Source: Escherichia coli
GTDB lineage: Bacteria; Pseudomonadota; Gammaproteobacteria; Enterobacterales; Enterobacteriaceae
NCBI RefSeq assembly: GCF_045037415.1
Contig: NZ_CP173438.1
DNA length: 64,000 nt
Direction: 5' to 3' (one strand)
Below the pieces are notes generated by a model. It searched no databases, was not told the origin of the DNA, and saw only the letters and a list, made by a program, of their open reading frames with translations. The position numbers were made by a program, and so were the translations under genes. Of the stretch, positions 1,131 to 7,156 are shown in pieces (within the stretch, counting starts at the first letter, position 1; each line of letters opens with the position of its first letter).

Positions 1131-3392
1131 TTACCCCCGACGCAAATTCTGCGCCGCCTGCACCATGTTCGCCAGTGCCGCGCGGGTTTCTGGCCAGCCG
1201 CGCGTTTTCAGGCCACAGTCCGGGTTGACCCACAGACGCTCTGCCGGAATGCGTTTTGCCGCTTTCTTCAGCAAGGCTTCAATCCATTCCACGCTCGGTA
1301 CGTTTGGCGAGTGAATGTCATAGACGCCAGGACCGATTTCATTTGGATAATCAAACTCTTCAAACGACTCCAGCAACTCCATGTCGGAACGCGAGGTTTC
1401 GATGGTGATGACGTCTGCGTCCAACGCCGCAATCGAATCCATAATGTCGTTGAACTCGCAGTAACACATGTGAGTGTGGATTTGTGTGTCATCTTTCGCC
1501 ACGGCGGCGTTGATACGGAAAGCCTCCACGCCCCACTGGAGATAGGCATCCCAGTCGCTGCGACGCAGTGGTAAACCTTCGCGCAATGCCGGTTCGTCAA
1601 TCTGAATGATGCCAATTCCAGCGGCTTCCAGATCGGCCACTTCATCACGCAGTGCCAGCGCAATCTGTTTGGCGATGGTTTCACGGCTGACATCTTCACG
1701 CGGGAACGACCAGCAGAGAATAGTCACCGGGCCAGTCAACATCCCTTTCACCGGTTTATCAGTCAGGGATTGCGCATATTTTGCCCACTCCACGGTAATC
1801 GGTGCCGGGCGGCTAACGTCACCAATAACAATCGGTGGCTTCACGCAGCGGGAACCGTAGCTCTGTACCCAACCGTTTTGCGTAAAGACAAAGCCATCCA
1901 GATGCTCGCCAAAGTATTCCACCATGTCATTACGCTCGGCCTCGCCATGTACCAGCACATCCAGTCCCAAACGTTCCTGCTCAACAATGGCCTGCTTGAT
2001 ATGTTCCGCAATGCCCGTGCGGTAGTTATTGGCGTCGATATTACCCTTTTTAAAATCCAGACGCAGGGTACGAATCTCCGTGGTTTGCGGGAAGGAACCA
2101 ATCGTGGTGGTCGGCCACGCGGGCAGTTTAAAACGCGCACGCTGGGCTTCAGCACGCACTTCATAGACATTCGCACGCTGACTGTCCTGGGCGGTGATCG
2201 CCGCCAGACGCTTTTCTACTGCCGGATTATGTACACGAGTAGAGTGACGACGCGCCTGAATCGGAGCGCTCCACTCTGCCAGAGCTGCCGTATCACCACT
2301 GTTCAGCGCATCGCGCAGCAATGCCAGTTCATGACATTTTTGCAAGGCGAAGGCAAACCAGCTTTTCACTTCTGCATCAAGACGCGTTTCCACGCTCAGG
2401 TCGATGGGGCTGTGCAGCAGTGAGCAGGAAGATGCCACCCACAAATCACGTTTGCCGACAATGTCCTTAATTTGCGCATATTTCTCGGTAAGATCGGCGC
2501 GCCAGACGTTACGACCATTGATAAGACCCGCAGACAGCAGCCAGTCAGAAGGCAGGCGCTTGTGCAGTTCAGCAACGTCATCTTTACCATGTACAAGATC
2601 GACATGCAGACCCTGAACAGGCAGCGCAGTAATCGTGTCGAGGTTTGGCGTTACGCCTTCAAAATAGGTGGTCAGCAGCAGTTTCACCTGGCCCTGGAGC
2701 GCGTCGTAAGCGGGTTTGTATGCATCCAGCCACGCCTGCGGCAGTTCCAGCACTAGCGCGGGTTCGTCGATCTGTACCCACTCAATGCCGCGTTTCGCTA
2801 GTTCTGCCAGCACTTGCTGATAAACCGGCAGAATGTCGTTCAGCAGGCTCAGGCGATCAAACTGTTCACCTTTCACTTTACCCAGCCACAGGTAGGTAAC
2901 CGGCCCCAGCAGCACAGGTTTCACCTTGTGGCCCAGCGCCAGCGCCTCGTCCACTTCCTCCAGCAGCTGCGTCCAGGTCAGTTTGAACTGTTGGCCTTTA
3001 ACGAACTCCGGCACCATGTAGTGATAGTTGGTGTTAAACCATTTGGTCATTTCCGCTGCCGCCGCAGGTTCGCCAGTCGGTGCACGTCCACGACCAATAC
3101 GGAACAGGGTATCGATATCTACCGAACCATCGTTGTTCTGATGACGTTGCGGAACATTACCCAGCAGCAGACTGGTTGTCAGTACATGATCGTACCAGGC
3201 AAAATCGCCCACCGGCAGCAGGTCGATACCCGCTTGCTTTTGTTGATCCCAGTGACGAGCACGCAATTCACGCCCTACCGCCAGCAGTTCTTCACGCGTG
3301 GAGTTCCCCGCCCAATAACTCTCTTGCGCTTTTTTCAGCTCGCGACGCAGGCCAACGCGAGGGAAACCGAGGGTGTGATTAAGAATTGTCAT
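1131..3392 (-). CDS. metE: Cobalamin-independent methionine synthase
   Basis: 753-aa ORF; N-terminus [29 protein letters not shown] and overall length match E. coli MetE. Confidence 0.97.
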
Positions 3393-3509
3393 TATATGCC
3401 CCTTATGGAATTTTTAGTATTTAGCCGTCCAGATGTTTACACATCCATAATTGGCGGTTACTGTATATTCCTCAAGCGCAAATTATTCATGCCGAAGTGA
3501 AGGACTTTC
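3393..3509. promoter_or_regulatory. Divergent metE/metR control region with MetJ/MetR sites expected
   Basis: 117-bp divergent intergenic region; contains AGATGTTTACACATCC, which resembles tandem met-box-like octamers. Site positions not mapped. Confidence 0.4.
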
Positions 3510-4463
3510 ATGATCGAAGTAAAACACCTGAAAACGCTACAAGCGTTGCGGAACTGCGGCTCACTCGCAGCCGCTGCGGCGACGTTGCATCAAACGCAAT
3601 CCGCCCTGTCTCACCAGTTTAGCGATCTGGAACAACGCCTTGGCTTCCGGCTATTTGTGCGTAAAAGCCAGCCGCTTCGCTTTACACCGCAGGGAGAAAT
3701 CCTGTTGCAACTGGCAAATCAGGTGCTGCCGCAAATTAGCCAGGCACTGCAAGCCTGCAATGAACCGCAGCAGACGCGCCTGCGCATTGCCATAGAGTGC
3801 CATAGCTGTATTCAGTGGCTGACGCCCGCATTAGAAAATTTCCATAAGAACTGGCCGCAGGTGGAGATGGATTTTAAATCGGGCGTAACGTTTGATCCGC
3901 AGCCTGCGTTGCAACAGGGCGAGCTGGATCTGGTGATGACGTCCGATATTCTGCCGCGCAGTGGCCTGCATTATTCGCCGATGTTCGACTATGAAGTACG
4001 TCTGGTGTTAGCACCTGACCATCCACTGGCGGCAAAAACGCGTATTACACCGGAAGATCTCGCCAGCGAAACGCTGTTGATTTATCCGGTGCAGCGTAGC
4101 CGACTGGATGTCTGGCGGCATTTTCTTCAGCCAGCAGGCGTCAGCCCGTCACTGAAAAGCGTCGATAACACCTTATTGTTGATTCAGATGGTTGCCGCAC
4201 GGATGGGTATTGCCGCACTACCTCATTGGGTGGTGGAGAGTTTTGAACGCCAGGGTCTGGTGGTCACCAAAACCCTGGGCGAAGGCTTGTGGAGCCGACT
4301 GTACGCCGCCGTGCGCGATGGCGAGCAGCGTCAGCCGATTACAGAAGCGTTTATTCGTTCAGCGCGCAATCACGCCTGCGATCATCTGCCGTTTGTGAAG
4401 AGCGCGGAGCGACCCACTTACGATGCACCCACAGTGAGGCCAGGATCACCAGCGCGCCTGTAA
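3510..4463 (+). CDS. metR: LysR-family regulator of methionine biosynthesis
   Basis: 317-aa ORF; N-terminal HTH ([41 protein letters not shown]); divergent from metE. Confidence 0.95.
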
Positions 4464-5250
4464 TAAACGTTGGCCAGTGCGGCTGTTGGTGCCAGATAGC
4501 CAGGTTTACCAGCAGCCCTGCCGGAACGTGCATATTATTCATAATGCCCAGCGTTCCGGCGTCCACCTGCGTCGCGCCGTAGTTCCACATAAAGTAGCCA
4601 ATCCCGGAAGCCACCACGCCAAGAAACACCAGAATGCCCCATTGCAACGTGGTTTGCGGCATTTTCTGCGCATTTCCCAGCAAGAACCATGCAATCACTG
4701 CCACCAGGAACGCGCCAAGATAGAACCACGCAAAGGCGTTATGCTGCGGCATCGGGCGAGTTTCCATCAGACGTTTGTAACCCACCATGCCGATGGCAAA
4801 AGTGATATTGGAGAGTTGCACCAGCAACAAGCCAGTCCAGAAATGGTCGGTGACCTGATCATAGCGAATAATCCCGGCACCAATCACCGCCAACAAGGCG
4901 CTAAAAGCATAGCCCCAGCGCAGACGGCGCTTACTCATGATGTCATAAATCAGCGTGATGTAGAGCGGCGTCAGTACGGTGAACAACAGCAGTTCAGAAA
5001 CCGTCAGGTAGAGATAGGCGCGGAAACTCAGCATATACATCACACCGAGCTGCATCGCGCCCACCAGCATATACAGGCCGACCGTTTTCAGGCTATTGCC
5101 ACGGGTACGCAGAAACGGCAGAAAAACAAGTGCCGCCAGACCAACGCGCACCAGCACCGCAAAATAGCTATCGACGTGCCCCGCAAGGTACTCGCCATAA
5201 AAGCTAAAGGAGAAGGCCCACAGAATCGTGGTGATGATAAGTAGCGCCAC
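4351..5250 (-). CDS. yigM: EamA/DMT-family inner membrane transporter (biotin transporter YigM/BioP)
   Basis: 299-aa polytopic membrane ORF; position between metR and yigL as in E. coli; 3' end overlaps the metR 3' end by 113 bp. Confidence 0.85.
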
Positions 5251-5325
5251 AATGGAAAACTCTTTGATTAACGAGTATCCATTGTAGCGAAGTATCAGGT
5301 TGACAACTGACCAAATAAAGAACGA

Positions 5326-6126
5326 TTACGATAAATAGAGCTTACGCAGATAATGCGGCACTGCGTCTTCGGCGTTAGTACCAATCACTTCCAGCTCTGG
5401 ATGCAGATCTTTCAGCCGTTGATGCGCGCTGCCCATAATGCAGCCTTTCCCCGCCATCGACAGCATTTCGGCATCGTTCATTCCATCGCCAAAGGCAATA
5501 CAATCTTGCAGGCTGTAACCCAGTTTCTTCGCTACCGCTTCCAGGGCATGGCCTTTTGAAACGCCGCCAGCCATGACTTCCAGGCAGGTTAAGGTAGAGA
5601 AACTGACATTGACGCGATCGCCCCAGCGAGCGTTAATCGCTTGCTCCAGTGGCAGAAGTTTTTCATGGGAATCGCAGGTGAAGAACACTTTGCTGACGCC
5701 TTCCGGCTCCAGCAATCCCGGCTCATACAGCGCATAATTGAACACCGCTTCTTTGAAAAAGCGCATCTCTTCCGGGCGATGGCGATTCATAAACCATTCG
5801 TCGTCGCGATAAACGTTAGTAATGATGTCCGGATTGTCGTTGACTACGCCAAACAGATCGCTGGCAATGTCGCGATCCAGGTTATGAGCAAAAATCAGGT
5901 TGCCATCCAGATCGTGAACGCGCGCGCCATTGGAGGTAATCATGTAAGACTTAATCTCCAGATTATCGCGAATTTGCCCCACATCAACGTGGTGACGACC
6001 GGTCGCAAACACAAAGTTGATGCCGCGCGCGGTGAGCAGCTTCAGAGTTTCTTTGGCGTAAGGGGATAACGTATGGTCGGGAGAAAGTAACGTGCCATCT
6101 AAATCAGACGCAACAACCTGGTACAT
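5326..6126 (-). CDS. yigL: Cof-type HAD sugar phosphatase
   Basis: ORF 5326..6252; conserved start taken at MYQVVASDLDGTLL (HAD motif I DxDGT), giving 266 aa. Confidence 0.9.
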   Translation of the reverse strand: MYQVVASDLDGTLLSPDHTLSPYAKETLKLLTARGINFVFATGRHHVDVGQIRDNLEIKSYMITSNGARVHDLDGNLIFAHNLDRDIASDLFGVVNDNPDIITNVYRDDEWFMNRHRPEEMRFFKEAVFNYALYEPGLLEPEGVSKVFFTCDSHEKLLPLEQAINARWGDRVNVSFSTLTCLEVMAGGVSKGHALEAVAKKLGYSLQDCIAFGDGMNDAEMLSMAGKGCIMGSAHQRLKDLHPELEVIGTNAEDAVPHYLRKLYLS

Positions 6127-6133
6127 AAGAAAT

Positions 6134-7156
6134 TTAAACCTCTGTAGAGCGGTTTCCGCTGGGTGAGTTATGCCTGTTGAAAAAATCAACGATAGCGTGG
6201 AGCGCGACTGAGCGCATTGCGTCCTTTTCAAAAAGGATCTCATGGTACGCACCTTTAATTACCAACGGCCGTCCTCCTTCGACAGGATGGCCCGCAGCGG
6301 TGCGTAGTTCACAAAAACGGTCGTGCATGCGGTTATCCACCACGCGTTCCTCTTCAGCTTGTAAGAGAAGCGTTGGCGTGGCGTCATCACCCGCACCGGC
6401 TAACACCTGTTCGCCAGCCAGAATACTTTCGCGTACCCAATGGTAGGTCGGCCCACCGACGCGAATCGTTGGGTCATCAGCATAGAAACGTAAGTTACGT
6501 CGATATCGCTGTCTGCTGTGGGTCAGTACGTTGATAGCAAACGGCAACGCGCGCCAGCGCCCGGTGCCTATTGCATAGCCATCACGGAAACGTGGATGCG
6601 CTTCGGCCCAATTGAGGATCTGCCGTGCCATAAATGACGGCATACGAATCACGATCCCAAACATTGGCGCAGTTAGCGCAATGGCGTCACATACACCTGG
6701 ATGGCGTTGCAGAAATAATGTGGAGATCGCACCGCCCATCGAATGTGCCAGTATATAGCGTTTACGCCACGGACCGGGCTGAACCTCCTGTTGCCAGAAT
6801 GCCGCCAGATCATCAACATAATCATTAAAGCGATTAACATGCCCGAGATGTGGATCGGCTAACAGGCGACCGGAACGTCCCTGCCCGCGATGGTCGATGA
6901 TTAAAACATCAAACCCCGAATGGAACAGGTCGTAGGCCAGTTCCGCATATTTTACGTAGCTCTCAATACGCCCCGGGCAGATAACTACCACCCGGTCATG
7001 GTGCTGTGCGCGAAAACGGACAAAGCGAACCGGAATGTCATCCACACCAGTAAACTCTGCTTCATCACGCTGACGCCAGAAATCAGTCAGCGGTCCCATG
7101 GTAAAAGCAGCAAACGCGTTTTCTCTTGTTTCCCAGTCTTTTTGCTGCTGAAACAT
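6134..7156 (-). CDS. pldB: Lysophospholipase L2
   Basis: 340-aa ORF with alpha/beta-hydrolase GHSMGG motif; immediately upstream of yigL. Confidence 0.9.
   Translation of the reverse strand: MFQQQKDWETRENAFAAFTMGPLTDFWRQRDEAEFTGVDDIPVRFVRFRAQHHDRVVVICPGRIESYVKYAELAYDLFHSGFDVLIIDHRGQGRSGRLLADPHLGHVNRFNDYVDDLAAFWQQEVQPGPWRKRYILAHSMGGAISTLFLQRHPGVCDAIALTAPMFGIVIRMPSFMARQILNWAEAHPRFRDGYAIGTGRWRALPFAINVLTHSRQRYRRNLRFYADDPTIRVGGPTYHWVRESILAGEQVLAGAGDDATPTLLLQAEEERVVDNRMHDRFCELRTAAGHPVEGGRPLVIKGAYHEILFEKDAMRSVALHAIVDFFNRHNSPSGNRSTEV

Follow-up and report, generated by a model that had tools for sequence, protein, structure and literature searches.

Conserved tail-to-tail overlap of metR and yigM (bioP) in the Enterobacteriaceae, with protein tails that are probably dictated in large part by the partner gene

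In a survey of 338 genomes, the convergent orientation was the only one that gave plausible real gene overlaps of more than 60 bp, 54 out of 178, and the conservation of most real long overlaps did not reach beyond very close species (Pallejà et al. 2008 BMC Genomics, PMC2478687). The shared end of metR and yigM in Escherichia coli resembles the conserved long convergent overlaps of this survey and of Rogozin et al. 2002, which it cites (PMC2478687), in being arranged tail to tail, in exceeding 60 bp and in arising by 3' extension into the neighbouring gene. Unlike most of the real cases in the survey, it is kept at a fixed length throughout a family, and overlaps of other lengths occur in at least two more families. 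Convergent pairs that share a bidirectional intrinsic terminator provide another point of reference, since in both situations the transcripts must end near or within each other; metR and yigM, however, have no intergenic space, no hairpin with a U-tract was found between or just beyond their stops (scan of 3300-5500), and published bicyclomycin data point to Rho-dependent termination on the yigM strand (PMC7815308). Antisense 'shadow' genes likewise occupy two frames on opposite strands, but the Pseudomonas cases (PMC8850804) are whole novel ORFs nested within a gene, whereas metR and yigM share only their tails, with about 12 nt under dual selection.

The overlap has already been noted in E. 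coli by Côté et al. 2016 mBio (PMC5120140), who also identified yigM as the biotin transporter BioP. In their study deletion of metR was synthetically lethal with bioA and conferred the same sensitivity to a BioA inhibitor as seen in the yigM mutant, which the authors attributed to disruption of yigM by the metR deletion owing to the overlap (PMC5120140). Their K-12 metR/bioP pair is the same locus with the same gene-relative coordinates, and the feature itself does not differ. The arrangement is thus an ordinary one, annotated and reported before, and its comparative dissection supplies new detail rather than a new kind of overlap: what is added to the earlier description is the switch of the selected frame, the 12-nt junction, the logic of the stop codons, the distribution of the overlap among lineages and the occurrence of separate genes in Mixta. 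Unless regulatory coupling is demonstrated, the metR/yigM overlap raises no new biological question; it is also a clean textbook case of how a long convergent overlap gets tolerated, with selection acting on a single frame at a time and each gene giving up no more than a probably disordered tail.

The locus was analysed within a window of 64,000 nucleotides of E. coli DNA (contig NZ_CP173438.1), to which all positions refer unless K-12 is named; its features are collected in Table 1. The initial annotation had described the two genes as sharing 113 bp at their 3' ends in different frames, and this proves exact to the base in the ORF list, in RefSeq and in K-12. RefSeq/PGAP places metR and 'bioP: biotin transporter' with identical boundaries in an E. 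coli genome that matches the sequence at 100%, and in K-12 MG1655 (NC_000913.3) bioP at 4011076-4011975 (+) and metR at 4011863-4012816 (-) form the same overlap. Of 5426 complete E. coli genomes, 5422 carry the 2 kb around the overlap at ≥95% identity, and several match it at 100%. Reading through the sequence reveals no earlier in-frame stop in either gene. The two frames are registered such that position 1 of both genes coincides (coordinate mod 3 = 0), position 2 of metR lies opposite position 3 of yigM, and position 3 of metR opposite position 2 of yigM. By virtue of this phase, a substitution at position 3 of a codon in either gene always alters position 2 of a codon in the other.

Table 1. 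Features of the metR/yigM locus, in window positions
Feature	Position	Strand	Description and basis
metR CDS	3510..4463	+	317 aa, ATG start, TAA stop 4461-4463; ORF, RefSeq CDS
yigM (= bioP) CDS	4351..5250	-	299 aa, GTG start, TAA stop read 4353 to 4351; ORF, RefSeq CDS
Convergent overlap, 113 bp	4351..4463	both	MetR 281-317 and stop, YigM 263-299 and stop; common to both gene tails by ORF listing and sequence reading of the window
Left part, metR frame selected	4351..4403	+	MetR C-terminal helix region 281-298, ending (K/R)(S/N); YigM tail 284-299 is the antisense passenger
Dual-constrained junction	4404..4415	both	MetR A299-E300-R301-P302; YigM V280-A281-P282 and first base of R283
Right part, yigM frame selected	4416..4463	-	YigM 263-279, end of TM10 and HR(K/R)W motif; passenger on the antisense strand: MetR tail 303-317
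yigM stop	4351..4353	-	TTA on +; fixed by MetR Phe281-Ile282 (TTY followed by A.. reads TAA/TGA on -)
metR stop TAA and in-frame back-up TAA	4461..4466	+	set by YigM codons
YigM Val268 codon	4447..4449	-	main site where a synonymous yigM change truncates MetR: GTT/GTC gives TAA/TGA at codon 313
Obligatory yigM 3' untranslated region	4215..4350	-	antisense inside metR; stable hairpins at ~4295-4338 and 4250-4278, without U-tract

Both metR and yigM are real functional genes, as is evident from the curated cut-offs that their products pass, from domain structures of MetR and from the biotin-transport phenotypes of yigM (PMC5120140, PMC10038027). MetR, a LysR-type activator of metE/metH, scores 741 bits against the NCBIfam equivalog PRK15421 (cut-off 382) over residues 1-317 and contains the Pfam domains HTH_1 (5-63) and LysR_substrate (86-288). 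Its structure matches are PDB 5fo5, the MetR DNA-binding domain, to residues 1-92, and 4ab5, a homologous Neisseria regulatory-domain structure, to residues 87-296, where the alignment stops. [quoted passage not shown] All of these family models (LysR_substrate, EamA and TIGR00950) stop before the tails.

Structure predictions point in a similar direction. The AlphaFold2 model of YigM, based on 79 diverse sequences (pLDDT 89.4, pTM 0.87), comprises ten long helices, with a kink in one at 239-241; the last helix, TM10, extends over 259-280, and residues 281-299 are modelled as coil with pLDDT of 57 and then 44. A close-homologue search for YigM returned near-identical proteins only, and a representative search was used for the distant tails: among the approximately 70 representatives of the family, the segment following the W279 position comprises 0-23 residues of unrelated sequence. 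The AlphaFold2 model of MetR is poor (pLDDT 61.7, shallow alignment), and its low confidence at 298-317 weakly suggests that this segment is unstructured. The tails MetR 303-317 and YigM ~284-299 are probably disordered. In their total length the two proteins show none of the anomaly relative to orthologues by which Pallejà et al. recognise misannotation; they stay within the range, which is 307-324 aa for MetR across Enterobacterales and 276-302 aa for the YigM family, while exceeding the non-overlapping pair of Mixta by 10 aa (MetR, 317 aa) and 18 aa (YigM, 299 aa).

A species scan with MetR, taking one genome per species, yielded 80 Enterobacteriaceae loci, and in 76 of them MetR has 317 aa, YigM 299 aa and the overlap measures exactly 113 bp. 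Such recurrence of an identical geometry implies that the arrangement did not arise by chance in a single sequence. The exceptions are one locus with a MetR of 312 aa and an overlap of 98 bp (L029), two loci in which metR reads on to a second stop, giving 318 aa and 116 bp (L031, L079), and one with a YigM of 284 aa and an overlap of 68 bp (L061). Truncated YigM proteins of 284-285 aa thus occur in nature, in L061 as well as in P0076 and P0077. Outside the family the same phase is retained at other lengths: the overlap is 98 bp in Dickeya dadantii (MetR 312, YigM 299 aa), 95 bp in Rahnella (MetR 311, YigM 299 aa) and 56 bp in Serratia odorifera (MetR 324, YigM 286 aa). It is absent in the Erwiniaceae examined, Pantoea and Mixta; in Pantoea yigM does not lie downstream of metR, and MetR has 312 aa. 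YigM homologues of no more than 51% identity (L083, L084, L090, L091) sit elsewhere in their genomes, and we rejected them as evidence on the origin of the overlap because none of them adjoins metR.

Which of the two proteins does selection read in the shared DNA? We addressed this by aligning, without gaps, the 71 species that have the canonical geometry and enough sequence, calculating the entropy of each column in bits and averaging by coordinate phase, where mod 3 = 0 is position 1 of both genes, mod 3 = 1 is position 2 of metR and 3 of yigM, and mod 3 = 2 is position 3 of metR and 2 of yigM. In the part that is metR only (3510-4350) the entropies of phases 0, 1 and 2 are 0.178, 0.074 and 0.922, and the first portion of the overlap (4351-4407) follows with 0.096, 0.081 and 0.589. 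The second portion (4408-4463) gives 0.248, 0.805 and 0.221, and the part that is yigM only (4464-5250) gives 0.292, 1.017 and 0.116. The pattern switches from metR-like to yigM-like at about 4413-4416.

The protein sequences reflect this division. Mean pairwise identity of MetR is 93.5% over residues 1-280, 96.0% over 281-302 and 57.5% over 303-317; for YigM it is 87.5% over 1-262, 82.9% over 263-282 and 70.8% over 283-299. The least conserved part of each protein is therefore its own tail, which lies opposite a conserved segment of the partner, and each tail mirrors the synonymous variation of the partner gene. The initial annotation had proposed an alignment of both proteins across Enterobacteriaceae as a means to see which C-terminus is conserved; the alignment was informative in that both stops are kept, but it did not favour one end over the other, as neither extreme tail is well conserved at the protein level.

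Between the two singly selected parts lies a short junction in which the three codon positions are near-invariant, with per-codon entropies in the 71 species of 0/0/0, 0/0/0.46, 0/0/0 and 0/0/0. Synonymous-codon entropy is 0 at MetR A299, R301 and P302 and at YigM V280, A281 and P282, where amino-acid-matched means are 1.0-1.4 bits. To control for amino-acid composition when assessing synonymous variation over the whole overlap, conserved codons for the same amino acid were drawn from the non-overlapping parts for each overlap codon. Summed synonymous entropy amounts to 57% of the expectation for MetR 282-302 (P<1e-4) and to 68% for YigM 264-284 (P=0.001). This deficit resides mostly at the junction, plus a few sites: with the junction left out, the ratio is ~0.73 for the metR codons facing the YigM tail and ~0.94 for the yigM codons facing the MetR tail (YigM 265-277). 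Third-position entropy in the overlap is also lower than in every 19-codon window of non-overlapping metR and lower than in 98.8% of the yigM windows. The shared DNA is thus constrained from both frames, and only about 12 nt of it is dual-coding.

The stop codons offer an explanation for the constancy of the overlap. MetR F281-I282, which fix the yigM stop, are invariant, and the stop of YigM is found at the same position in all 71 canonical species. In the opposite direction, the metR stop is produced by YigM Ile263 (ATY) followed by a codon beginning with A, and the back-up stop by Phe262-Ile263; MetR position 318 is a stop in 71/71 species and position 319 in 58/71. Conserved residues of the partner fix both stops, hence the constant length of 113 bp. 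The length of the tails is unremarkable as well, given that (61/64)^15 is ~0.5, so tails of 15-17 codons approximate the distance to a first chance stop once the cores abut.

We further drew synonymous codons at random, keeping the protein sequence of the partner unchanged. Under this scheme the YigM tail stays open in 91% of the resamplings, and its constant length accordingly needs no selection of its own; we rejected an ORF open beyond chance as a sign of a functional YigM tail, because the MetR protein alone already accounts for this degree of openness. The MetR tail stays open in 58% of the resamplings versus full length in 79 of the 80 species, which are related, so that the counts are not independent; the difference hints at weak selection against truncation of MetR. 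Two isolated sites stand out. YigM Val268 is GTG in 78 of the 80 loci, although GTG accounts for only 60% of Val codons in the two genes and the average synonymous entropy at conserved Val sites is 1.31 bits. The single GTT at this site belongs to L029, the species with the 312-aa MetR. YigM His276 is CAT in 71/71 species, preserving MetR Asp305, and position 305 is Gly in other families. To this extent the tails are not entirely free to vary.

Mixta shows what the two proteins look like when the genes are separated. Here 471 bp separate metR from yigM and contain an 82-aa ORF, for which no Pfam match was found; the two genes encode a MetR of 307 and a YigM of 281 aa. Homology of MetR is kept through R301 and then gives way to HPLPVS*, and that of YigM is kept through V280 and then ends in R* (WVR*). 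Both breaks fall at 4411-4412 in E. coli coordinates, inside the doubly constrained junction. Their coincidence at a single DNA point indicates that both proteins can work with their tails replaced or lost, though not shortened below their cores, and the tails of MetR and YigM consequently look replaceable. MetR nevertheless retains a Pro-rich tail of 5-10 residues even where there is no overlap, in Pantoea and Mixta, so some form of tail may be useful to it.

The Erwiniaceae are the accepted sister group of the Enterobacteriaceae. Given this relationship and the occurrence of the overlap in Pectobacteriaceae and Yersiniaceae, the separation in Mixta is most simply regarded as derived. On the strength of the accepted Enterobacterales phylogeny, we infer that the separated state arose by insertion at the only point where one would be tolerated.

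Where might the transcripts of the two genes end? A scan of 3300-5500, which covers a hairpin and the following U-tract (for a genuinely bidirectional site an A-tract upstream would be required in addition), returned a single site, at 4064-4076 inside metR, where 2.7 would be expected by chance. Neither strand of 3300-5500 matches an Rfam 15 family at E-values up to 1. RNA 3' of the stops forms more stable folds than shuffled controls (z = -2.19 on the metR side and -3.53 on the yigM side), and hairpins lacking U-tracts occur 3' of each stop. A conserved hairpin on the metR side was not found, the helices being broken by synonymous variation in many species; on the yigM side, marginal covariation was seen in the first hairpin alone (~4295-4338), where three pairs show double changes, a number reached by 61 of 500 shuffles.

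Published termination data bear on the yigM strand. A Rho termination region is listed at K-12 4011704 (+), internal to yigM (Adams et al. 2021 eLife, PMC7815308, Supplementary file 2), with a Rho score of 5.07 and p = 1.3e-12 in 800-nt windows; the read counts behind it are very low, 98 and 21 untreated versus 300 and 326 with bicyclomycin (PMC7815308). This position corresponds to ~4622 on the minus strand of our window, and the downstream window used for the score covers the overlap and the metR antisense region. The published tables list no Term-seq 3' ends at K-12 4011600-4012199, and the supplements of the E. coli p19 dsRNA capture study have no entry for metR or yigM, which low expression could explain. 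If both full ORFs are transcribed, the metR and yigM mRNAs must share at least 113 nt. The picture fits weakly expressed genes whose transcripts end heterogeneously inside the partner, by Rho at least on the yigM strand.

The metR/yigM overlap is a genuine, old and conserved 3'-to-3' overlap, in which the tails are likely to be largely passengers dictated by the partner. The functional cores, MetR up to about Pro302 and YigM up to about Pro282, just after TM10, would be placed end to end with hardly any DNA in common. Past the end of the core, the reading frame would continue into the antisense of the partner core until the first stop is met, and the sequence of the tail would be set largely by partner codons and drift with the partner's synonymous changes. 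Tails of this origin would be largely dispensable, and the overlap may persist because the genes could be separated only by inserting DNA precisely into the junction. Since a terminator would find no space between them, each mRNA would end inside the other gene, in a Rho-dependent manner for yigM; both genes being weakly expressed, polymerase collision or antisense pairing would presumably be of little consequence.

Several other accounts of the overlap have to be weighed against this one. Large surveys contain many mispredicted overlaps of more than 60 bp, including 124 of the 178 convergent ones (PMC2478687), and the family models fall short of both tails. Both points would fit the suggestion of the initial annotation that one of the C-termini is over-called, for which a sequencing error, a frameshift or a spurious ORF could be responsible. 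This suggestion finds no support at this locus, because the first in-frame stop sets a 3' end and both stops are conserved: stops cannot be mis-called as starts can, the same ones appear in K-12, in RefSeq and in 76 of the 80 species, the locus recurs in 5422 E. coli genomes, both proteins score above curated cut-offs and have an experimental literature, and deletion of metR mimics the loss of yigM (PMC5120140). The conservation of both stops refutes an artefact, for which we see practically no chance left. The opposite extreme, in which both tails are functional and the whole 113 bp is selected at the protein level in both frames, gains something from the reduced synonymous variation (ratios of 0.57 and 0.68), from the low third-position entropy relative to 19-codon windows of both genes, from the Val268 (78/80) and His276 (71/71) codons that preserve MetR Ser313 and Asp305, and from the MetR ORF being open more often than the expected 58%. 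The deficit is, however, concentrated in the 12-nt junction, and YigM 265-277 varies at ~94% of expectation; identity of the tails is low, their length and sequence differ between families, Asp305 being Gly outside Enterobacteriaceae, and natural truncations, a separated arrangement without the tails and the predicted disorder of the YigM tail all speak against a general function. We regard such full dual coding as unlikely.

The overlap might also be kept for the sake of regulation, if convergent transcription, by way of collision, antisense pairing with RNase III, or Rho, links the expression of bioP and metR; the initial annotation, too, had named transcriptional interference and antisense coupling. 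Both mRNAs must span the 113 bp, a terminator between the genes was not found in the scanned region, convergent overlap is conserved in three Enterobacterales families, the 3' regions are stably folded (z of -2.2 and -3.5) and Rho-dependent termination has been mapped on the strand of yigM. Biotin synthesis consumes S-adenosylmethionine, which makes a physiological link conceivable. Yet the dsRNA capture supplements are devoid of a metR/yigM entry, the Term-seq tables place no 3' end close to the overlap, and the untreated 800-nt windows of the Rho data contain as few as 98 and 21 reads; hairpins 3' of metR show no conservation, and covariation in the yigM-3' hairpin is weak. A search of papers on the two genes turned up no case in which altered transcription of one affected expression of the other. 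Mixta and Pantoea manage without the overlap, and the two protein frames fully account for the conservation of its sequence. Regulatory coupling as the reason for its maintenance appears quite improbable to us. A still more specific form, in which convergent transcription couples methionine/SAM regulation to biotin uptake, with transcription of MetJ/SAM-repressed metR reaching bioP from its 3' side, or vice versa, and import being tuned to SAM supply, would be a very long shot.

The chief value of the analysis is a practical one: the shared 113 bp must be allowed for whenever metR or yigM/bioP is edited or deleted. The Keio deletion of metR mimics loss of the biotin transporter (PMC5120140), and by the same geometry a full deletion of yigM would remove approximately the last 30 residues of MetR. 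The overlap also places changes at hand that are silent in one gene and truncate the other: YigM Val268 GTG to GTT truncates MetR at residue 312, and MetR Val296 GTG to GTT (position 4397) creates TAA at YigM codon 285 and so truncates YigM at residue 284.

Natural variation of the YigM C-terminus suggests that its last 15 residues are dispensable. Naturally truncated variants of 284-285 aa, seen at the Enterobacteriaceae locus L061 and in the proteins P0076 and P0077 (the latter carrying the name Salmonella enterica serovar Gaminara), terminate directly past WVAP(H/R)S and comprise dozens of member sequences.

In the RNA immediately following the yigM stop, two stable stem-loops occur (z-score -3.53). 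Pairing is 94-96% conserved in both, and the few compensatory changes are confined to the first stem-loop past the stop. These elements could be protective structures of the transcript 3' end or, alternatively, a by-product of conserved MetR codons. Upstream, a Rho-dependent termination region at K-12 position 4011704 (+), corresponding to window position ~4622 (-), is classed as 'internal' to yigM (Adams et al. 2021, PMC7815308). It lies ~270 nt before the yigM stop, its true position being imprecise because the windows span 800 nt. If Rho truly acts within the ORF, some yigM transcripts would end short of the overlap.

In Mixta (locus L088), an 82-aa ORF occupies the exact site of the metR/yigM overlap of other genera, with a strong hairpin 3' of the metR stop and a hairpin with a T-tract ahead of the yigM stop. 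Its N-terminus, MKELSVTEVQAISGAG, is reminiscent of the double-glycine leaders found on class II microcins or bacteriocins; a Pfam search of the ORF returned no match.

Features in and around the metR-yigM region
Feature	Coordinates	Strand	Remarks
Mechanical ORF, 255 aa	4477-5244	+	antisense within yigM
Mechanical ORF, 228 aa	2814-3500	+	antisense within metE
Stem-loop	4250-4278	-	inside metR
Stem-loop	4295-4338	-	inside metR
yigL, longest ORF	5326-6252	-	308 aa, GTG start at 6252
pldB	6134-7156	-	compared with longest yigL ORF
82-aa ORF	L088:3602-3850		Mixta gaviniae-type contig

The two long antisense ORFs, whose frame differs from that of metR, probably represent the usual shadow ORFs that accompany codon-biased genes. 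The longest yigL ORF would run into the pldB 3' end; RefSeq places the yigL start at 6126 (266 aa), and the yigL/pldB overlap therefore reflects only an ambiguous choice of start codon in the mechanically compiled ORF list.
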